The position numbers and the translations under genes were made by a program. The notes below the pieces were generated by a model. The model ran no database searches, was not told the origin of the DNA, and saw nothing but the letters and a program-made list of their open reading frames with translations. Shown here piece by piece: positions 23,796 through 32,490 of a DNA stretch of 64,000 bases. This stretch comes from a phage, in sequence record PZ445527.1; one strand, 5' to 3'. How positions within the stretch are numbered: the stretch's first letter is position 1; every line of letters starts with the position of its first letter.

Positions 23796-24164
23796 TTACA
23801 TCGCCTGAGTAAATGTACGACTAATAACGTCGTTCTGCTGTTCACGCGTCAGTGCGTTAAAACGCACAGCATAACCAGAAACACGAATGGTTAGCTGAGG
23901 ATATTTTTCAGGATGTTTCTGAGCATCCAAAAGCTGGTCACGACTTAACACATTGACATTTAGGTGTTGACCCCCTTCAATTTGAGGGGCGACTTCCACC
24001 TTGACTTCACGAAAGGATTCGGGGTCAAAGTGAGGTGTGATACCTTCTAGATCCTCAACTAGAACTTTTTGTTTAAGTTCACCATCTTTAGAGTATAATT
24101 GAATAATCTGATTATTATGAACAATATTAATTACGCCAGATTTAAGATTTTGATATGCTTTCAT
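23796..24164 (-). CDS. grcA: autonomous glycyl radical cofactor (GrcA/YfiD-like)
   Basis: C-terminal half closely matches remembered E. coli GrcA blocks ([30 protein letters not shown]). Confidence 0.8.
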
Positions 24165-24529
24165 TAGATCTCCCTGATGTTAGAATTTGGCTCAGCTTTT
24201 TGTTAACCCAGAAGCAAGATAAAAACTGGAAGGCAGGCTTGCTTTTCTCTTAACCACTAGGCTACTTTTGGGTGCTAGCATTCCGGTGAGATTGATGGTC
24301 TCGGTTAAGAAGAAAAACACGGGACTTCTGTTTTAACGTCGTGCTCCCGGATTGATGCGACTACGTGATTGCTCGCGCTAAGACAATGGCTATCTAAAGT
24401 CTTAGCTTCTACATTTATACTCCTGGATAGCATGGAGTTGCAGTCTACTTCCTGCTGTCACGCCCGGTCATTTATAGAATGTGGACTCTCTTCTCAGCAA
24501 GTTCTGGCACTATGGCCTGATCTTCTGTT

Positions 24530-24603
24530 TGGTAGTTAGTAGTGGAATCGAACCAGGTTCCACGGTTTACAAGACCGTTGCATCGCCAGCAATGCTTTAA
24601 GAG
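24530..24603 (-). ncRNA. tRNA-like remnant: anticodon arm with UGU (Thr-like) plus imperfect T-arm, no matching 5' acceptor strand
   Basis: acggt-cttgtaa-accgt arm with U33/A37, then GGTTCGATTCC-like loop and CCA; acceptor pairing not found. Confidence 0.3.
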
Positions 24604-24996
24604 CTATCGTTGTCTTGTTGAAACTCTATTTCTGGCCCTATGCGTAGAGGTCATAGAGTGGCAGTTAGGGCAGAGAATCTTTAGATTTTCTGGAGAACAG
24701 TTAGTTGCATCTCCATCTATATGATCTACCTCAGTTAAAACTGCTCCGTCAATTGGATGTTTCCCATCCCAACCACATACTTCACAAGCAGTACCACGAG
24801 TATCCCACAGCCACTTCCTAACAAAAGGTTTTAATTGTGCAGCTTTACCAGTATAACCAGGTTCTTCACCTGCCAGCCACTTTAATACTTTTTGCTTTGT
24901 CTGGTACTCCTGCTGACAAGCAGGACCACAATACTTACCTGCGGAACCTCTACTTTTAGGTTTTGTGATTCCGCAATTTAAACAAGTAAACTCCAT
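24604..24996 (-). CDS. HNH endonuclease 130 aa
   Basis: HNH core (HIDGD...N...NL..LCPNCH) with zinc-finger cysteines. Confidence 0.75.
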   Translation of the reverse strand: MEFTCLNCGITKPKSRGSAGKYCGPACQQEYQTKQKVLKWLAGEEPGYTGKAAQLKPFVRKWLWDTRGTACEVCGWDGKHPIDGAVLTEVDHIDGDATNCSPENLKILCPNCHSMTSTHRARNRVSTRQR

Positions 24997-25160
24997 GTTG
25001 CTTCCTATTTCAACGGGATTTCTTTTTCAATAACAAGGGCTTATCAGTCATAACTGTCATTGCCATTTGTTGTAGAAATTCAAAGGTGAAGGCTACACGT
25101 TCTTCACCAATCTCTACTTCTACACGTTTCTTTTGTTTGTCAACCTTTAATTTTAGGCTA

Positions 25161-25382
25161 TCAGCCATCTTCGGATTCTCGTTGCTCGGCTACTGCTAGC
25201 CAGTCTGGTAAAAGAAACTTAGTACGAAACTCTTCATACGTTTCTTCTGGATAAAAGCTAAAACCCCCTTTCTCATCATTCAAGATAACAGAGCCGTCAG
25301 TTTGTTCATATGCTCGATATGTTTCTCCAATAATGATAACTCGCTTATCAGTACTTTTATTACGAAACTCAAAAACGTGCAT
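25161..25382 (-). CDS. hypothetical protein 73 aa
   Basis: ORF track. Confidence 0.45.
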   Translation of the reverse strand: MHVFEFRNKSTDKRVIIIGETYRAYEQTDGSVILNDEKGGFSFYPEETYEEFRTKFLLPDWLAVAEQRESEDG

Positions 25383-25398
25383 AACGTTTCCTTAAAGT

Positions 25399-25474
25399 TG
25401 GAGCGGCTAGAGGGAATCGAACCCTACTCAGCGAGGCTTGGAAGGCCTGCGACACAACCCGTGTGCTTAACCGC
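25399..25474 (-). tRNA. tRNA-Gly (anticodon UCC)
   Basis: Hand fold: 7-bp acceptor (one G-U), T-loop GGTTCGATTCC, anticodon loop CTTCCAA, encoded CCA. Confidence 0.55.
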
Positions 25475-25482
25475 TTATTGTT

Positions 25483-25560
25483 TGGCAGGGGATATTGGAT
25501 TTGAACCAATGATCTCGACTTCAAAGGCCGTTGTGCTAACCGTTACACTACTCTCCAATT
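25483..25560 (-). ncRNA. tRNA-like 3' fragment (canonical T-arm + acceptor 3' strand + CCA) without a pairing 5' acceptor strand
   Basis: ATTGG-TTCAAAT-CCAAT T-arm followed by atcccct-g-CCA; no complementary 5' strand within 100 nt. Confidence 0.3.
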
Positions 25561-25648
25561 GTTTGGCTGGAGTGCCTGATTCAATCCCAGGCACCTTCGG
25601 AGTCAGAGGCCGACGACTTGACAATTGATCTACACCTCAAGAATACTA

Positions 25649-25885
25649 TTAACTAGATGCTGGTTCTGCTGGCTGAGATACAGCAGGCTGTTCTAATGTA
25701 TCTGGTGCTGATACAGAGAAAAGAGCTTGTAATGCTGCAATATCACGCTCGTAAGTTTCAATACGAGTAGTAAGAGTATCTACCATCTGTTTATGATAGG
25801 CTAAGTTATTCTGAGATTCATCTCGAAGGGTTTGCAGTTCTGCAAGACGTGTTAACATAATTTCACTAATTAAAGCATTACTCAT
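25649..25885 (-). CDS. hypothetical coiled-coil protein 78 aa
   Basis: ORF track. Confidence 0.5.
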   Translation of the reverse strand: MSNALISEIMLTRLAELQTLRDESQNNLAYHKQMVDTLTTRIETYERDIAALQALFSVSAPDTLEQPAVSQPAEPASS

Positions 25886-26075
25886 TTGTTTCTCCTAAAT
25901 TTTCCGGTTCTTCTAAACGTTTGCCTTCATGATCTACTCGAATAACTCCGCATCCTTCGCAAATCACAACTGCACCATAACCTTCTTTGACTTCAGCTTC
26001 TGTAATCAAACCAGAAAGATCACCAGTATCTCTGCCCCACATATCAATGGAGCATTGTTTGCAGAAATCAGCCAT
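25878..26075 (-). CDS. small Cys-containing protein 65 aa
   Basis: ORF track; CKQC...CEGC. Confidence 0.45.
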   Translation of the reverse strand: MADFCKQCSIDMWGRDTGDLSGLITEAEVKEGYGAVVICEGCGVIRVDHEGKRLEEPENLGETNE

Positions 26076-26100
26076 ATTTTATTTCCTATTTAAGTTAATT

Positions 26101-26177
26101 TGGGGTGGCTAGTGGAACTCGAATCCACATAGGCCTGATTCACAATCAGGATCATTAACCAATTATGATATAGCCAC
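26101..26177 (-). tRNA. tRNA-His (anticodon GUG)
   Basis: Perfect 7-bp acceptor, D-stem TCAT/ATGA, anticodon stem CCTGA/TCAGG with loop TTGTGAA, T-arm GTGGA-TTCGAGT-TCCAC, encoded CCA. Confidence 0.75.
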
Positions 26178-26543
26178 AATTGAAAACTCGCAGGGTTAGC
26201 GAAACCATCCTCAATTAGCATGTTCTAGAATACTAATCAAGTTATCTCCTATTGCACGCAGCTCAAGACGAGTACGAATTTTCAATTGTGGCGGCTCTCA
26301 GAAACTCTTCTATTCTAGCCTCAGAAGCTTACCCCCGAACGCATGTCGGGAAAGTCTTTCCAAGCGCATCAAATAGCACCGTTACACTTTGAGCCATTGA
26401 TGTATCAAGGAATAGAAGGACTTGAACCTTCATGAGTTAGACCATTTAACTCAACCGCTTTTTAGGGTATATTTCTAGGAGTGGATGTTCCTAGTAAACC
26501 TATTCGGCAGTCCCGTCTACCAATTCCGGCATATTCCAAGATT

Positions 26544-26638
26544 TGGAGGTAGGTAAGGGGATCGAACCATTACACCGTATCACTACGGTCAACCGATTTC
26601 AAGTCGGAGTCCATCGCCAGCCGTTGGATTGACCTACC
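26544..26638 (-). tRNA. tRNA-Ser (anticodon UGA), type II
   Basis: 7-bp perfect acceptor, anticodon loop CTTGAAA, long variable arm (ACCGTA/TACGGT), T-loop TTCGATC, CCA. Confidence 0.7.
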
Positions 26639-26650
26639 TTATAAATTGTT

Positions 26651-26735
26651 TGGTGGGTTAGGAGAGACTCGAACTCTCACGCACTTAAGCAAGGGCTTCT
26701 AAGACCCTCGTGGCTACCAATTACACCACTAACCC
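26651..26735 (-). tRNA. tRNA-Leu (anticodon UAG), type II
   Basis: 7-bp perfect acceptor, anticodon loop CTTAGAA, long variable arm, T-arm GAGAG-TTCGAGT-CTCTC, CCA. Confidence 0.7.
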
Positions 26736-26741
26736 CTAATT

Positions 26742-26816
26742 TGGTGGACAGTAGGAGAGTCGAACTCCTCACTCCTGAGTGCAAGTCAGGTATTTTCCCA
26801 GATAAACTAACCGCCC
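26742..26816 (-). tRNA. tRNA-Ala (anticodon UGC)
   Basis: Acceptor GGGCGGT with G3:U70 wobble (Ala identity element), anticodon stem CCTGA/TCAGG loop CTTGCAC, T-arm AGGAG-TTCGACT-CTCCT, CCA. Confidence 0.7.
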
Positions 26817-27055
26817 AAATTCTTTAATTTACTAAGGCTATTAGCTCGGCGTAACTACAGCACCTTCGCTTCAAGCGGAAGGAACCGCGTCATCTCGCAA
26901 ACCCAATACACTATTCAGTTGCCGCTGAATCTAGTGGACTAATCTAGAACTTCTCCCGAGTCGTAGGGATCGTGCTTTTTGGCAGCCAGTCCTAGGTCGA
27001 GCTAATACCTTAGTGAATTATGATGAGGATTTCTCCCATATCAATTTATATAAAT

Positions 27056-27084
27056 ATTATAACAAGAAATTAATCATCAAGCAA
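27056..27084 (-). promoter_or_regulatory. sigma70 promoter (TTGCTT-17-TATAAT) driving the tRNA block 26101-26816
   Basis: Minus strand consensus upstream of untranslated spacer and tRNAs. Confidence 0.65.
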
Positions 27085-27158
27085 TTGAGTTTTTCTTGAA
27101 ATTGGTAGCGGGTTCCAGTACTGCCCTGGACTTACTTAGCTTATGAGACTAAGAAGAA
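27083..27158 (-). ncRNA. tRNA-like sequence with CAU anticodon, 1:72 mismatch and non-canonical T-loop
   Basis: Acceptor 6/7 bp with CCA, anticodon loop CTCATAA; T-loop GGCAGTA lacks the T-psi-C pattern. Confidence 0.3.
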
Positions 27159-27165
27159 CTCTATG

Positions 27166-27260
27166 CCTTCCACCCGCAATTGTTTGGTTATTCTAGACAG
27201 GATTCGAACCTGTTATCACTTGTGCGGACTTACGAGAACCATTCTTTCACTCGAATCGAA
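27166..27260 (-). ncRNA. region with two T-loop-like motifs (GGTTCGAATCC and CGTTCGATTCG) that does not fold into a canonical tRNA
   Basis: Hand folding failed to find anticodon arm/acceptor pairing. Confidence 0.25.
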
Positions 27261-27431
27261 CGAGCTTCTGCCCTAGCCAAGCTGGTTTCCCCATCAACCA
27301 CGCTAGAATGTTTGATTGTTTTCAGTGCAAGAGTCCGAGTCTTGGACACGACCGTTTCGCAAGTACATAGGCAGCTTATCATGAGTCAGCACTTCCGAAT
27401 TGCTAGCCCCGTGTTCTGCACTGAAATTTTA

Positions 27432-27779
27432 TTAGTTTAACCGTAAAGTATTATCTAATTCACCATTAATTGTTCGGCATTCCTCTGGAATTGCTGGTGT
27501 GGCCTTGTATTCCCACCACTCAGCACCATCATATTCCCCACGTTCTAGCCAAGTTCCGTCGGCAAACCATACATTACCATAAAGTAATTGTCCACCGTAT
27601 CCAGAATCATACTCAAAGTCTAGGTTATCAAGAAAATCCTCAATATCTTCTTCTGTATAGCCTAAAGGTAATACCCAAACTTTTTTATCCCCATAATACC
27701 CGAATTCTATTTTAATACACTTAATTTTAGAATTGGTATTTTTTAAGGCAAGTAACAACTCTTCTTTAGCATTACGCAT
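27432..27779 (-). CDS. hypothetical protein 115 aa
   Basis: ORF track. Confidence 0.55.
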   Translation of the reverse strand: MRNAKEELLLALKNTNSKIKCIKIEFGYYGDKKVWVLPLGYTEEDIEDFLDNLDFEYDSGYGGQLLYGNVWFADGTWLERGEYDGAEWWEYKATPAIPEECRTINGELDNTLRLN

Positions 27780-27804
27780 AGTATATTCTCATACTGAATT
27801 AATT

Positions 27805-27881
27805 TGGCGCGACTGATGGGATTTGAACCCACATTCCCTCCCGTGATAGGGGAGTACCATTACCAAGCCAGCCACGGTCGC
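27805..27881 (-). tRNA. tRNA with unusual anticodon loop CTATCAC (anticodon AUC if folded conventionally)
   Basis: Acceptor 6/7 bp + CCA, T-arm GTGGG-TTCAAAT-CCCAT, anticodon stem CTCCC/GGGAG; A34 is atypical. Confidence 0.5.
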
Positions 27882-27890
27882 ATAATTTAT

Positions 27891-28076
27891 TTACTCAGCT
27901 TTGAGTTTTTCAATAGCTGCATTAAGTTCTTTAAGAAACTCTTTTCGTACATTAAGACGATTGAGACTTACTAGTATATCATGTTTAAGTTCTTCGATGT
28001 ATTTCTTCTCAACTTCAATATTGTTGATAGTGCTATCACGATGAACTTCTAGCTGCGCAATCACATTCTTGGACAT
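27891..28076 (-). CDS. hypothetical coiled-coil protein 61 aa
   Basis: ORF track. Confidence 0.4.
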   Translation of the reverse strand: MSKNVIAQLEVHRDSTINNIEVEKKYIEELKHDILVSLNRLNVRKEFLKELNAAIEKLKAE

Positions 28077-28178
28077 GCTTGTTTCCTCAGTTATTAATGA
28101 AAATGGTATCTGTGGCTGAATTAGATGTCAGCAATGATAGCTGGTTGGCTACCGGTTTACTTAACTCTACACAGAATT

Positions 28179-28260
28179 TGGCGGGCCGTGTAGGATTCGA
28201 ACCTACGTTGTCTTTCGACACGGATTAACAATCCGCCGCCAAACCGCTTGGCTAACGACC
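28179..28260 (-). tRNA. type II (long variable arm) tRNA with anticodon GUU
   Basis: 7-bp acceptor (one G-U), D-stem GCCA/TGGC, anticodon arm GCGGA-TTGTTAA-TCCGT, extra arm GTC-GAAA-GAC, T-arm GTAGG-TTCGAAT-CCTAC, CCA. Confidence 0.55.
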
Positions 28261-28416
28261 CTAAAAAATTTATATTGCTGACTAGGGTTTTCACCTAGAC
28301 GGAGTTAGCACCGTAGCGTGTAGCGGCATACCTCTCCAAACCGTGCCTCATCTTTCAATTACGGAGACAGTGTTCCTACGCGTGCCTGAATTGATTTAAC
28401 AATTCTTTCAGCAAAT

Positions 28417-28492
28417 TGGACGACCGCATGAGGATTGAACTCACATAAAAAGGATTTGCAATCCTTCGCCTAAGCCATTCAGCCAACGGTCG
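28417..28492 (-). tRNA. tRNA-Cys (anticodon GCA)
   Basis: 7-bp acceptor, anticodon stem AAGGA/TCCTT loop TTGCAAA, T-loop TTCAATC, CCA; 5' end overlaps stop of ORF 28479..28670. Confidence 0.65.
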
Positions 28493-28670
28493 ATTTATCT
28501 TGTTTTTCGAGATCTTCAAACTCTAAATCATTGAAGTTCCCTAGAGTACGGGTATAGAACCCATCCCCTGCGTCATAGCCTGATTTACCACAATCACACA
28601 TTTTAAATTCGCGCAGGTGTGTGAAAACATGTTCAGAACCACAACACTTAAATCTAACTAATCGTTTCAT
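28479..28670 (-). CDS. small zinc-finger-like protein 63 aa
   Basis: ORF track; CC...CDCGKSG. Confidence 0.4.
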   Translation of the reverse strand: MKRLVRFKCCGSEHVFTHLREFKMCDCGKSGYDAGDGFYTRTLGNFNDLEFEDLEKQDKSTVG

Positions 28671-29093: not shown

Positions 29094-29221
29094 ACATTTA
29101 AAAGTATTCAAATACTAGTTTAAACACTTTTAAATATGTTTCCAAATTAGATAACTATTATACCAAGTTTTAAGGCACTGAGCAAGTCAGATTTTGAAGA
29201 ACTTGCTCAGTGCTGTATTAG

Positions 29222-29506
29222 TTAGTCGAACTTAGGAGTGACAGATAAGGAGAACGGAAGTTCAAAAACTTCTTCACCCTCATTACTAACGGTAACTACA
29301 CGACCTTTAAGTTCAGACATTAAAATATCAATATCAGCTTTTGCATCTGGAGCCATGCCAGCTTCAATACATTTAGCTTTAACTTCCGGTAAAAGCTCTA
29401 CGTTATAGAGATAGAGCCACTCAATCTCACCTTCCCAGTCTTCCCAGTCTTCCCAGGATTTGCAGATTGCACTTTCAATACCAGTTGCTACAACACGATT
29501 TTGCAT
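29222..29506 (-). CDS. hypothetical acidic protein 94 aa
   Basis: ORF track. Confidence 0.5.
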   Translation of the reverse strand: MQNRVVATGIESAICKSWEDWEDWEGEIEWLYLYNVELLPEVKAKCIEAGMAPDAKADIDILMSELKGRVVTVSNEGEEVFELPFSLSVTPKFD

Positions 29507-29596
29507 TCGTTAACTCCTTCATCAATTTATATAACTATTATACCAGAAATTTAAAGCAAAAGGCAAGTACATTTTTAAAAATTCTGTTTGGAGGAG

Positions 29597-29803
29597 CTAA
29601 ACTCCAGATTCTTCTGCCAAGTCTAGACTAATAAGAGTTATAGCCATAATTGCTGCACCGTGTTCTTTTTCTCCGGTGTTTTTAGCAGAGTCTATAATAT
29701 CCTTAATCTGTTCGTAATAACTTTTTACTTCTTGTTCAATGCCTGCCTCGGCTATCATGCCTTTAGTCATGAGTCGTTGCATGGTAATTTCAGTATTAGC
29801 CAT
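29597..29803 (-). CDS. hypothetical protein 68 aa
   Basis: ORF track; GGAG SD. Confidence 0.5.
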   Translation of the reverse strand: MANTEITMQRLMTKGMIAEAGIEQEVKSYYEQIKDIIDSAKNTGEKEHGAAIMAITLISLDLAEESGV

Positions 29804-29963
29804 GTTGTTTCTCCAGTTTCATTTTTAATAGTTTACAAATGAAATCAACGTCTTCATCCGTGCCTAGATCTCTATCTTCAAGGGTTGCCTTGAAATTTTT
29901 TGTTAGTTCCATAAGAATAACTTCCCTGGAACGACGTGTTGGCGGGGGTGGATGTCTATACAT
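29796..29963 (-). CDS. small proline-rich protein (55 aa)
   Basis: ATG with AAGGA SD, MYRHPPPPTRR...; below ORF track cut-off; overlaps next start by 8 nt. Confidence 0.4.
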   Translation of the reverse strand: MYRHPPPPTRRSREVILMELTKNFKATLEDRDLGTDEDVDFICKLLKMKLEKQHG

Positions 29964-29978
29964 CTTATTTCCTTAATT

Positions 29979-30053
29979 TGGTGGGTCGGAGGAGAATCTA
30001 ACTCCTACTCGTTAGCTTATGAGGCCACCGCTTTAACTTTAAGCTACCGACCC
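29979..30053 (-). tRNA. tRNA with CAU anticodon (Met or Ile-lysidine type) and atypical T-loop TTAGATT
   Basis: Perfect 7-bp acceptor GGGTCGG/CCGACCC, CCA, anticodon loop CTCATAA, T-stem AGGAG/CTCCT. Confidence 0.55.
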
Positions 30054-30059
30054 TATGTT

Positions 30060-30148
30060 TGGCGGAAGAAGTGGGAATCGAACCCACAAGGCTATATTTC
30101 AAACCGACAGATTAGCAATCTGCTGCAATACCGTTATGCTATTCTTCC
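30060..30148 (-). tRNA. tRNA-Ser (anticodon GCU), type II
   Basis: Perfect acceptor GGAAGAA/TTCTTCC, anticodon arm GCAGA-TTGCTAA-TCTGT, long variable arm, T-arm GTGGG-TTCGATT-CCCAC, CCA. Confidence 0.7.
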
Positions 30149-30162
30149 GAATTTATAAATAT

Positions 30163-30191
30163 ATTATATTAGAAATTTAGCTTCATAGCAA
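30163..30191 (-). promoter_or_regulatory. sigma70 promoter (TTGCTA-17-TATAAT) overlapping the 3' end of the upstream gene
   Basis: Minus strand consensus; would drive tRNAs 30148-29979. Confidence 0.6.
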
Positions 30192-30687
30192 GAAAATTTT
30201 TCAAGTTTTCGGTAGACATCTCATCCACATCTACAGGAGAAACAAATCCATTTAATTGTCTAGCAAATTTTTTACCAGCAGGATCATTATCCCCAACAGC
30301 TACCAATTTAAAAGGTAGTAATTTCAATTGCTTTAATAGCGCTTTTCCTGGAGAAGAACCCAACATTGCCAAGGCTGGATAACCAGCGTTATGTAACGCA
30401 ACTGCCTTAAATACAGATTCAGCAATCAATACCACTTTTTCATCTCCATTGAGAGTTTCTAGTCCCCATACACACTGTGTAGTAGAATAAGTAAAATATC
30501 TAGCTTCAAAGGGGCACTTACCATGACCTTTTGGAGCAGAAGGATTATAAGTCTGATAGCCTCTCAACATCCCAGAGAAGTCATACAATGGGACTGTTAG
30601 CCATCCTTCCGGGCTTAACCAGCAATGATATTTATCTGTATCAAACCCTCTAGATAAGAGATGTTCTGTTAGTTCATCAACAGTCAT
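30169..30687 (-). CDS. Toprim-domain protein 172 aa
   Basis: Conserved Glu (LIAESVF) and DxD (VGDNDPAGKK) spaced as in Toprim folds. Confidence 0.5.
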   Translation of the reverse strand: MTVDELTEHLLSRGFDTDKYHCWLSPEGWLTVPLYDFSGMLRGYQTYNPSAPKGHGKCPFEARYFTYSTTQCVWGLETLNGDEKVVLIAESVFKAVALHNAGYPALAMLGSSPGKALLKQLKLLPFKLVAVGDNDPAGKKFARQLNGFVSPVDVDEMSTENLKNFLAMKLNF

Positions 30688-30724
30688 ATTTGATCCCCTA
30701 GTTAGTTGTATAAATACATTATAC

Positions 30725-30758
30725 AGAAAAGCCCTGCGCTCTCCAGTGAACGCAGGGC
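30725..30758 (-). terminator. rho-independent terminator (gccctgcg...cgcagggc + U-tract)
   Basis: 8-bp GC stem followed by UUUU on minus strand, downstream of 30784..31731. Confidence 0.65.
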
Positions 30759-30783
30759 TTACTTCGAATATTACGTGTGGGTA

Positions 30784-31731
30784 TTACTTGTTACGCATAT
30801 CCATAATCATTTGGCCATCGTAACCAGTGCCAACCACAGTCTGCGGTACACCACCTTGATACTTCTGAGCACGAATCATTTCAACTTCTAGTTGCTTCCA
30901 GCGAATCATCTCAGGAGTAATGGTACGTTGCAGAGCGGCGTTAGCTTCAGCTTCTTTCTTAGCTGCGTACAGTTTAGCATCTGCATCACGTTCGTTTGCA
31001 ATAGCTTGGTTGTTACGAGCTTCACGATCTGCTTCTGCTTGTTTAACCTTCTGCTGTGCTTCTTGTTCAACACGAGCCAACTCAGCTTTCGCAGCATTAA
31101 CTTGTTCTTCACGAACTTTGGTATTCTGTACCTGTTCCATGATTACAGGCGGCAAAGTAATATCCTGAAGGAACACTTGCTTAACTGTGTAACCATAAGG
31201 GCGTGCATACTCTTCAACTTCCTGTTGAATTGCAGTTTGCAATTGAGCCTGAATTTTAGCATCAAACAAATCTTGTGCTTTAGGTACAGACTTACCAAAC
31301 TCACGAATAGTAGACAGTAATTTTTCAGTTACATACTTGTCTAGTGCCTGATCCTGAGTACCTGCATTAATACGGTTAATCGGTGCCTTAGAACCATCAA
31401 ACTGCAACATAACAGTCAGGTCAACAGTGGATTTAAACTTATCCTGACTAGGAACCTGAAGTTTATCTAATTTTACAGCAATATCTTTTGTACTGAAAGT
31501 ATCGAAAGATGCAAACGGGTTTACAATATGGAAACCAGGTAATACTGGATTAGGGTCTACTTTACCAAGAAATGTTTGGGTTTTAACCGTACCATCAGAA
31601 ACAATAGTATATGAATTAAAAGCTAGGATTAAACCTGCTAAACCAACTACAGCACCAATACCCCAACGTTTAATAGTACGGATTACTTTCTGCTCAGAAG
31701 TCAGTTCTTTCATATTTTTAGTAGCAAACAT
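30784..31731 (-). CDS. SPFH/band-7 (prohibitin/HflK-like) membrane protein 315 aa
   Basis: N-terminal TM helix, SPFH-like core, long Ala/Glu/Gln-rich coiled-coil C-terminus. Confidence 0.6.
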   Translation of the reverse strand: MFATKNMKELTSEQKVIRTIKRWGIGAVVGLAGLILAFNSYTIVSDGTVKTQTFLGKVDPNPVLPGFHIVNPFASFDTFSTKDIAVKLDKLQVPSQDKFKSTVDLTVMLQFDGSKAPINRINAGTQDQALDKYVTEKLLSTIREFGKSVPKAQDLFDAKIQAQLQTAIQQEVEEYARPYGYTVKQVFLQDITLPPVIMEQVQNTKVREEQVNAAKAELARVEQEAQQKVKQAEADREARNNQAIANERDADAKLYAAKKEAEANAALQRTITPEMIRWKQLEVEMIRAQKYQGGVPQTVVGTGYDGQMIMDMRNK

Positions 31732-31765
31732 ATATTTCCTTTGTTTTAGTTACAGTTAATAAAAT

Positions 31766-31839
31766 TGGCCGAGGTGACAGGATTCGAACCTGCATAAAGG
31801 AATTTAGAAGACTCCTGCCTCTCCCTTAGACTACACCCC
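31766..31839 (-). tRNA. tRNA-Arg (anticodon UCU)
   Basis: Acceptor 7 bp (one G-U), anticodon loop CTTCTAA, T-loop TTCGAAT, CCA. Confidence 0.6.
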
Positions 31840-32343
31840 GTTTAAGTATTTTTAAGAACTCTCGTAAAAACTCTTAAAAATACAGACGATACCGGGAGAG
31901 TCATAAGTCTCACTCATTAAGTATTTCAAGACAAAATACAGTAACGTCTATTATTTTCCAGTTTAAGTCAGGGTGACTTAGTGGTTATGTCCTGCGGTAT
32001 ATTGAGGACTCGGTTAGGCTTGGGGTCATGACTTCCCGCCTTTTGCTGCTACTCAACAGGAGTTATCGCGAATTACCTGTGCTATTGTGCACCATTAGTG
32101 ACATCTCTCATGCCAGCATTTCCCACTTTGTGGATAGCTTGAAAAACTACTCCGATACGGAGAAAGAACTTCACTATCCTAGAATACCTTCTAAAGTTCT
32201 TCTTTAGCCTGGACATAGTTAAATCGTAATAAAACTATTCAGCAGACCGGTTGGTTAGTCTGGAACCAACTACCGCGTGGTTTAGGCAGTGCGCAACTAA
32301 CCTCGGAAGCTTTTACGTTAAAAGCACCAGTTATCCAGTTCTT

Positions 32344-32416
32344 ACCGACCGTAGGATTCGAACCTACATCTTCCACCAGTTACGGCTTGATAATACCAAT
32401 TATACTAGGACGGCAG
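32344..32416 (-). ncRNA. tRNA-like sequence (canonical T-arm GTAGG-TTCGAAT-CCTAC, no CCA, anticodon arm not resolved)
   Basis: Hand fold incomplete. Confidence 0.35.
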
Positions 32417-32490
32417 TGTTACTACATAAGTGATTTCCACACCCCACTATTTATAAATTAGAAAAGAATTACTCTCTAATTTATGAATAT

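Follow-up and report, generated by a model that had tools for sequence, protein, structure and literature searches.

A set of small stable RNAs in the transfer RNA (tRNA) region of phage T5 was reportedly first described in the 1980s by the group of Ksenzenko, Kryukov, and Bayev. The T5 sequence records place three of them (rnaIII, rnaI, and rna1) between tRNA-His and tRNA-Ser1 and a fourth (rna2H) between tRNA-Ala and the promoter P13b, carry further annotations for rnaIV, rna2, and rna3, and describe such genes as 'stable RNA with unknown functions', rna1 being a 'tRNA-like stable RNA'. Phage T4 offers a similar case with its species 1 and 2 RNAs (rnaC and rnaD), the 'RNA species I and II' of earlier work (PMC2330249), which are likewise small stable RNAs of unassigned function, lie in a phage tRNA cluster, and are co-transcribed with tRNAs. 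Our literature search found no paper on the function of the T5 stable RNAs. Here, we analyse the spacers of the tRNA cluster in a stretch of 64,000 nucleotides (nt) from phage record PZ445527.1, hereafter the window, and principally the two spacers at 26178-26540 and 26817-27055, with those at 28262-28416 and 24165-24530 as further cases. By homology, the four RNAs of the two main spacers are stable RNA genes that are already annotated, and thus already known, in T5. We think it very probable that they are cut from one early leftward transcript and serve as dispensable accessory RNAs.

About 500 T5-like phages of Salmonella, Escherichia, and Klebsiella match positions 24100-28600 with 80-96% identity in megablast searches, and this similarity therefore identifies the tRNA region of a member of the Demerecviridae, in the Tequintavirus/Epseptimavirus group. 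All tRNA genes are on the minus strand (12 are called by ARAGORN) and the cluster is read leftward. A preliminary description of the window had stated that the four spacers contain neither canonical tRNAs nor open reading frames (ORFs) of at least 60 amino acids (aa), and both statements are borne out: neither ARAGORN nor Rfam at gathering score places a canonical tRNA in any of the four intervals, the extra tRNAs found by Rfam lying outside them, and the intervals hold only mechanical ORFs of 30-56 aa. The Rfam scan, suggested there as a check, returned no family for the spacer RNAs, whether at gathering score or at E <= 10, sub-threshold tRNA matches aside. The sole match at E <= 10 in the main spacers is a partial tRNA at 26407-26476, with 22.2 bits against a gathering score of 29, and it spans the variable-arm hairpin and the T arm of RNA1. 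Of the contents envisaged for these spacers, degenerate tRNAs are represented by the tRNA-like RNA1 and non-coding RNAs by RNAI, RNAIII, and RNA2H, whereas small proteins are not retained, because the ORFs are not conserved.

These identifications come from BLAST alignments of the misc_RNA features of T5 (AY543070) and of the st0 record (AY692264) to the window (Table 1). Lengths, order, and flanking tRNAs of the four RNAs are the same in T5 and in this phage, with tRNA-Ser1, RNA1, RNAI, RNAIII, and tRNA-His following each other in one group, and P13b, RNA2H, and tRNA-Ala in the other. According to the T5 annotation, base 26178 is the G-1 of tRNA-His, which slightly corrects the limit of the first spacer. 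Matches to that spacer occur in 500 phage records and extend over 80% or more of the spacer in 262; a lack of conservation, which would have spoken against the preliminary description, is thus not what we find, and the segments recur across hundreds of T5-like phages with compensatory changes. The two genomes differ around the four genes: this phage misses the ORF T5.063, which in T5 lies between tRNA-Ser1 and RNA1, and the T5 block from P13a through tRNA-Pro, tRNA-fMet, tRNA-Lys, and tRNA-Val, and has a degenerate tRNA-like sequence in the place of RNAIV. The latter, at 27104-27186 on the minus strand, resembles a tRNA(CAU), with an acceptor stem (GCGGGU/ACCCGC), a loop reading CU-CAU-AA, a T loop that is aberrant, and a terminal ACCA. 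Only three of the fetched loci have it and, in spite of its position, it is no homologue of T5 RNAIV.

The spacer 26817-27055 contains RNA2H and part of a promoter resembling T5 P13b, whose hexamers can be read from the sequence as TTGCTT (-35, 27084-27079) and TATAAT (-10, 27061-27056). A generic promoter scan did not rise above background (22 found against 15.9 +/- 4.9 expected) and the promoter call rests for this reason on homology with T5, which also supports the promoter-driven leftward transcription claimed in the preliminary description. The two 'terminators' that the generic scan placed inside RNA1 and RNAIII are instead structural hairpins of these RNAs.

Table 1. Stable RNAs, associated helices, and promoter in the tRNA region (positions in the window; T5 names where a counterpart is annotated)
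Feature	Positions	Strand	Remarks
RNAIII	26179-26284	-	100% identity to T5 rnaIII, 106/106 nt
RNAI	26289-26395	-	99.1% identity to T5 rnaI, 107/107 nt
RNA1	26396-26540	-	93.8% identity to T5 rna1, 144/145 nt aligned
3' strand of the extended RNA2H duplex, CCUUAGUAAAUU	26826-26837	-	CC at 26836-26837 is the 3' overhang of the annotated RNA
RNA2H	26836-27007	-	98.8% identity to T5 rna2H, 172/172 nt
5' strand of the RNA2H closing-helix extension, AAUUCACUAAGG	27008-27019	-	Predicted to pair with 26826-26837
Hairpin in the 5' leader of the P13b transcript, GAUAUGGGA-GAAA-UCCUCAUC	27022-27042	-	Conserved with compensatory changes among promoter-bearing homologues
P13b-like early promoter	27029-27103	-	86.7% identity over 75 nt to the annotated P13b of T5
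RNA2	27187-27310	-	96% identity to T5 rna2; just outside the two main spacers
RNA3, putative tRNA-like RNA of T5	28104-28176	-	98.6% identity to T5 rna3; single-sequence fold z = -3.47
X150, tRNA-shaped structured RNA without T5 counterpart	28275-28414 (spacer 28262-28416)	-	Covariation
Conserved structured RNA region of about 370 nt, absent from T5	24165-24533	-	Between a tRNA-Thr-like gene and a grcA-like gene

For the comparative analysis, homologues were taken from 63 IMG/VR loci, from GenBank phages of Yersinia, Obesumbacterium, Pectobacterium, Klebsiella, Enterobacter, and Salmonella, and from five metagenome contigs, which gave about 40 distinct sequences, to be compared with the roughly 500 T5-like genomes in GenBank. 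Two pattern scans of IMG/VR and one of metagenomes returned T5-like and BIS47 sequences only, and 51 of the 56 17-mer matches in metagenomes were due to chance. The pattern of substitutions shows that the predicted RNA structure, not coding, is under selection in RNA1, RNA2H, and RNAI. For RNA1, 21 distinct sequences from Tequintavirus, Epseptimavirus, Sugarlandvirus, and Hongcheonvirus were aligned. Its fold is a cloverleaf with an acceptor stem of 6 base pairs (bp), a D arm, a 6-bp variable-arm hairpin with an invariant loop, and a canonical T arm (GAAGG-UUCAAGU-CCUUC). Compensatory changes affect 14 of its 36 pairs and 99.2% of the alignment cells are standard pairs, against 42-49% in slid controls; none of 500 shuffles reached the observed values.

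RNA1 has an acceptor stem stacked on a 5-bp T stem, a 7-nt UUCRANY loop, and a D arm with GG, as tRNAs do. Its D loop, GGAAUUGGUAGAC, is Leu-type, of the kind found in type-II tRNAs, and matches the D loop of the Escherichia coli tRNA-Leu. Where a tRNA would carry the 5-bp stem and 7-nt loop of its anticodon arm, RNA1 has an arm of three helices, whose tip is the invariant loop GAACAUCCACUC; the 8 nt of the invariant loop found there (ACAUCCAC) take the place of the 7-nt loop, and there is no anticodon. Nor is a CCA end encoded. ARAGORN does propose a 'tRNA-Phe(aaa)', with an arbitrary anticodon, if a 41-nt intron is allowed, and we rejected this intron-bearing tRNA as an artefact of the scaffold, because the supposed anticodon falls in a variable internal loop, a loop to which the covariation model gives another place. 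RNAI, RNAIII, and RNA2H show no tRNA-like combination of acceptor and T stems with a D arm. With no anticodon stem-loop and with scores below threshold, no element can be classed as a canonical tRNA.

RNAI folds as a rod between invariant ends (GGCUCAAAGWGUAACGGUGC and GARGAGUUUCKGAGAGCC), with a 5-bp acceptor-like terminal helix and a middle part that is variable yet compensated (6 compensatory pairs). Its length is 107 or 100 nt depending on the lineage, and its 3' end is an encoded R-CCA in 25 of the 26 distinct aligned sequences. RNAIII, which ends directly at the 5' side of tRNA-His, is predicted to form a four-way junction with a 12-bp closing helix and three hairpins (single-sequence z = -2.85). 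All loci with RNAIII agree at 96-100% identity, their few substitutions being at predicted unpaired positions, and no covariation is seen. When this phage is compared with Epseptimavirus, identity reaches 96% for RNAIII and 98.7% for tRNA-His, against 86-89% for the flanking coding genes and 80% for RNA1.

The same alignments bear on the proposal that the spacers encode small proteins, either a 34-aa ORF at 26329-26433 or the ORFs called hypothetical proteins in some GenBank records. Mechanical ORFs of 25-46 aa are indeed present, and several records have a 'hypothetical protein' over the region, to which the record of phage Stitch adds a ribosome-binding site. Yet the sets of ORFs vary by lineage, and the 34-aa ORF shrinks to 16 codons in Epseptimavirus; its variable sites are spread evenly over the codon positions (11, 13, and 14 of 34 each); its start codon falls in the T arm of RNA1 with no Shine-Dalgarno sequence visible upstream; and RNAI differs by 7 nt in length between lineages, while substitutions follow the paired RNA helices. 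Conservation, codon-position pattern, and indels thus all lead us to reject this option, which the preliminary description had left to small-ORF prediction and which we regard as highly improbable.

RNA2H is predicted to form a four-way junction with a 10-bp closing helix and three arms (single-sequence z = -2.64), and 9 of its 48 predicted pairs show compensatory changes. In Epseptimavirus, two of its peripheral hairpins are swapped for unrelated hairpins and the core is invariant. The flanks of the gene are conserved past the annotated ends in all homologues, including those without an upstream promoter, and the closing helix continues for 12 bp beyond these ends, so that the two parts, of 10 and 12 bp, form a duplex of about 22 bp interrupted by one bulge and one mismatch. 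The extended duplex has one compensatory change in this window, from G-C to A-U, and the annotated ends are staggered so as to leave a short 3' overhang. RNase III cuts long duplexes and leaves staggered ends with a short 3' overhang. Because the RNA2H duplex is of about 22 bp and has ends staggered in this manner, we infer that it is a putative RNase III-type processing site. The leader between the promoter and RNA2H contains a mini-ORF (MGEILIIIH), overlapping the leader hairpin, which we discarded as a leader peptide for attenuation: its frame and sequence change in relatives, and it is the GAAA-capped hairpin of the leader that is conserved instead.

These elements can be arranged in a scheme of biogenesis. 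Homology with T5 supports the P13b-like promoter, of sigma-70 type, as the driver of a single early polycistronic leftward transcript, which would carry, in this order, the leader hairpin, RNA2H, tRNA-Ala, tRNA-Leu, tRNA-Ser, RNA1, RNAI, RNAIII, and tRNA-His. The RNA-processing machinery of the host would excise the RNAs along with the tRNAs: 1) an RNase III-type staggered cut in the 22-bp duplex would release RNA2H; 2) RNase P would cut the 5' ends of RNA1, RNAI, and tRNA-His, which we propose because RNA1 is tRNA-shaped and RNAI has an acceptor-like helix and an R-CCA end; 3) the RNase P cuts would also set the 3' ends of the elements upstream, and the maturation of RNAI and tRNA-His would free RNAIII. 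As for the dispensability of the products, the tRNA region of T5 is prone to deletion and non-essential (PMC12483538), and the mutant T5(123), deleted from 29191 to 32442, is viable (PMC11464382). Because this deletion spans the T5 genes of all four RNAs (30284-30644 and 31808-31979) and leaves a viable phage, the RNAs should be dispensable.

Other elements of the cluster extend the picture beyond the four RNAs. RNA2 is predicted to be a tRNA-like cloverleaf with an expanded anticodon arm that bears a second T-arm-like hairpin, and 16 of its 27 pairs are compensatory. Homologues of its core were found in 14 records of T4-like Acinetobacter phages (L167 2464-2568 in our collection), lying between tRNA-Gly and tRNA-Cys in phage Acj133. 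In Enterobacter phage KKP_3711, the homologue of RNA2 is misannotated as a tRNA-Arg(ccg). The spacer at 28262-28416 holds a further structured RNA, X150, whose fold starts with a 7-bp acceptor-like helix (UUGCUGA/UCAGCAA), a 2-nt linker, a D-like hairpin, and a 1-nt linker, and continues with a long arm containing two inner hairpins and a T-like arm (CUAGG-UGAAAAU-CCUAG). Compensatory changes are seen in 12 of 39 pairs and 96.2% of the cells are paired, and none of 500 shuffles reached this. X150 matches 220 phage records, and of the records listed nearly all are without an annotated feature at the matching positions. The same fold is found in homologues located in the tRNA clusters of unrelated Klebsiella myoviruses of the genus Mydovirus (Vequintavirinae), such as BIS47 and P8734. 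Beyond its own homologues, the covariance model of X150 produced only two weak full-length matches, at L026 2347-2430 (E = 0.028) and at L068 8682-8764 (E = 0.69), the latter coinciding with the position of a tRNA-Lys gene.

Such elements invite the explanation that the spacers contain functionless relics, i.e., tRNA genes that have decayed or been disrupted by insertions, together with spacer RNA, which persist only as stable by-products of tRNA processing. It would account for RNA1, RNA2, and X150 having kept a tRNA scaffold and lost the anticodon loop, for the viability of T5(123) without the interval of RNAIII, RNAI, RNA1, and RNA2H, and for the variable presence of RNAIII and RNAIV between relatives, and the tRNA(CAU)-like sequence at 27104-27186 is clearly degenerate. 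Yet one expects decay from relics, and we find helices compensated across four lineages of Demerecviridae, invariant loops, and, in RNA2H, peripheral hairpins exchanged for hairpins around a fixed core. Furthermore, X150 and the core of RNA2 occur in unrelated phage families, always within tRNA clusters, which argues that they were acquired and retained. We regard the relics as an unlikely explanation.

The wide distribution of X150 and RNA2 bears equally on a role in cis, in which the elements, as platforms for processing or as leaders, would control in what order or how efficiently the adjacent tRNAs mature, or how stable these are, the accumulation of the elements being incidental; RNA2H, for example, could act as a 5' leader that RNase III cleaves, and RNAIII could present tRNA-His with its G-1 to RNase P. 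That every element sits between tRNAs is in line with such a role, as are the position of RNA2H directly after the promoter, its closure by a long duplex conserved past its ends, and the joint conservation of RNAIII and the adjoining tRNA-His. However, the internal domains of X150 and of the RNA2 core are preserved beside different tRNAs in different phage families, RNA2H lacks the upstream promoter in some phages, and a mere spacer has no need of invariant internal loops. A cis-acting role thus seems to us quite improbable, and we retain the view that these are accessory RNAs released from the transcript.

The last of the four spacers is part of a structured region at 24165-24533, of which at least 80% is covered in 149 phage records and for which 96 pairs are predicted, 16 of them compensatory. 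Its core, a module of two hairpins at about 24372-24440, is common to T5-like phages of Klebsiella and Pectobacterium and crosses subfamilies of Demerecviridae. The region also contains a candidate promoter (TTGCTG, 18 nt, TATAAA), and it could be either a set of stable RNAs or the 5' leader of the grcA-like gene. Like X150, it is unannotated in nearly every related record that we examined. The grcA-like gene itself (GrcA/YfiD-like glycyl-radical protein, 23796-24164, minus strand) is 95% identical to T5.056 and is misannotated in related records as a ribonucleotide reductase or formate-lyase. On the other side of the region, a sub-threshold tRNA-like sequence (24534-24604, minus strand, 24.5 bits) has 79% identity to the T5 tRNA-Thr and touches the stop end of the ORF of an HNH endonuclease (24604-24996).

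What could dispensable RNAs of this kind do? The T5 tRNA region is an anti-defence region (PMC12483538, PMC11464382, 10.1101/2023.03.15.532788), and its known counter-defence factors include tRNA-Lys against PARIS, tRNA-Tyr against Retron-Eco7, and the Rad protein against retrons (PMC11464382, 10.1101/2023.03.15.532788). The RNAs might be dispensable mimics of tRNAs, or decoys, for host factors that bind tRNA, such as defence nucleases and enzymes of tRNA processing or modification, an idea that we put forward very tentatively. Antisense regulation and coding look less likely than a decoy role: the longest complementarity of the spacer RNAs to minus-strand transcripts within the window is 11-13 nt, which is at chance level. 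A more specific proposal is that RNA1, RNA2, and X150, and perhaps RNAI, RNAIII, and RNA2H, are effector RNAs of one class, here called 'tRNA-scaffolded', which move horizontally from one tRNA island to another among unrelated phage families. The tRNA body would provide processing and stability, the conserved domain grafted in place of the anticodon arm would bind host factors and neutralise them, for instance defence nucleases that target tRNAs, and the modules would pass between T5-like Demerecviridae, rV5-like Mydovirus, and T4-like Acinetobacter phages. For the time being, we hold this proposal to be doubtful.

Several points weigh against the interpretation of the spacers as sources of processed accessory RNAs, or against parts of it. 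First, the RNase III-type site presupposes that the ends annotated in T5 are the true ones. Second, the stability of the RNAs is taken from the wording of the T5 annotation. Third, RNAIII is without covariation support and is missing in some relatives, e.g., Yersinia phage phiR2-01, and its conservation together with tRNA-His could be the result of recent recombination, or of gene conversion driven by a homing endonuclease, and not of selection. Fourth, nothing points to a specific binding partner, and a decoy role is speculation.

A few further observations concern neighbouring genes. The tRNA-Asp gene at 27805-27881 (minus strand) has the anticodon AUC in a CUAUCAC loop, where T5 and each of the 50 homologues fetched from relatives have GUC. 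Possible explanations of this G34A change are a sequencing error, an inactivated tRNA, or altered decoding. The tRNA-Gly(UCC) at 25399-25474 (minus strand) is 100% identical to the T5 gene but is missed by ARAGORN, and Rfam gives there only a sub-threshold match to tRNA-Sec. Another sub-threshold tRNA-like sequence (25567-25639, minus strand, 20 bits) lies at the position of the T5 pseudogene of tRNA-Gln2. Finally, a 172-aa ORF (30169-30687, minus strand) lies directly downstream of tRNA-Ser(GCU), at the position of T5.076, which encodes a Toprim/primase-like protein, and it is probably the 'Rad' anti-retron protein of the preprint by Azam et al.

Our study adds to the T5 annotation 1) folds supported by covariation; 2) an RNase III-type duplex around RNA2H; 3) two conserved elements absent from T5; and 4) tRNA-scaffolded modules that are common to unrelated phage families. 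The stable RNAs of T5 have been labelled as being of unknown function for decades, and they sit in an island recently recognised for its role in anti-defence. With folds under selection and at least two related elements in unrelated phage families, the question of their function becomes experimentally tractable. Genome annotation is concerned as well, since most records of T5-like phages leave the stable RNA loci blank or assign them spurious 'hypothetical proteins'.

Comparison with known systems places these RNAs close to tRNAs in architecture. RNA1, RNA2, and X150 share with the tRNA family (RF00005) the arrangement of acceptor stem, 2-nt and 1-nt linkers, D-type arm, and T arm; RNA1 differs from it by having a larger conserved domain in the place of the anticodon stem-loop. 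The T4 RNAs rnaC and rnaD were ruled out as sequence homologues of the spacer RNAs, as nhmmer searches of the T4 tRNA region with all our profiles gave no similarity (E > 0.1). In the fold predicted from its single sequence, rnaC (L168 1409-1547) would resemble RNA1 in shape, as it combines an expanded arm and a variable-arm-like hairpin with a T arm of canonical form (CCGGG-UUCGAAU-CCCGG). The Rfam searches of the spacers gave no match to transfer-messenger RNA (tmRNA) or Y RNA families, and no gene for an Rsr-type partner was identified. The tRNA-like domain of tmRNA, the bacterial YrlA Y RNAs, and the engineered 'tRNA scaffold' RNAs are tRNA mimics that carry a grafted domain, are processed by tRNA enzymes, and are highly stable. 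RNA1 and the elements of its type may be likened to them, by functional analogy only, in that a domain replaces the anticodon arm of a tRNA body.

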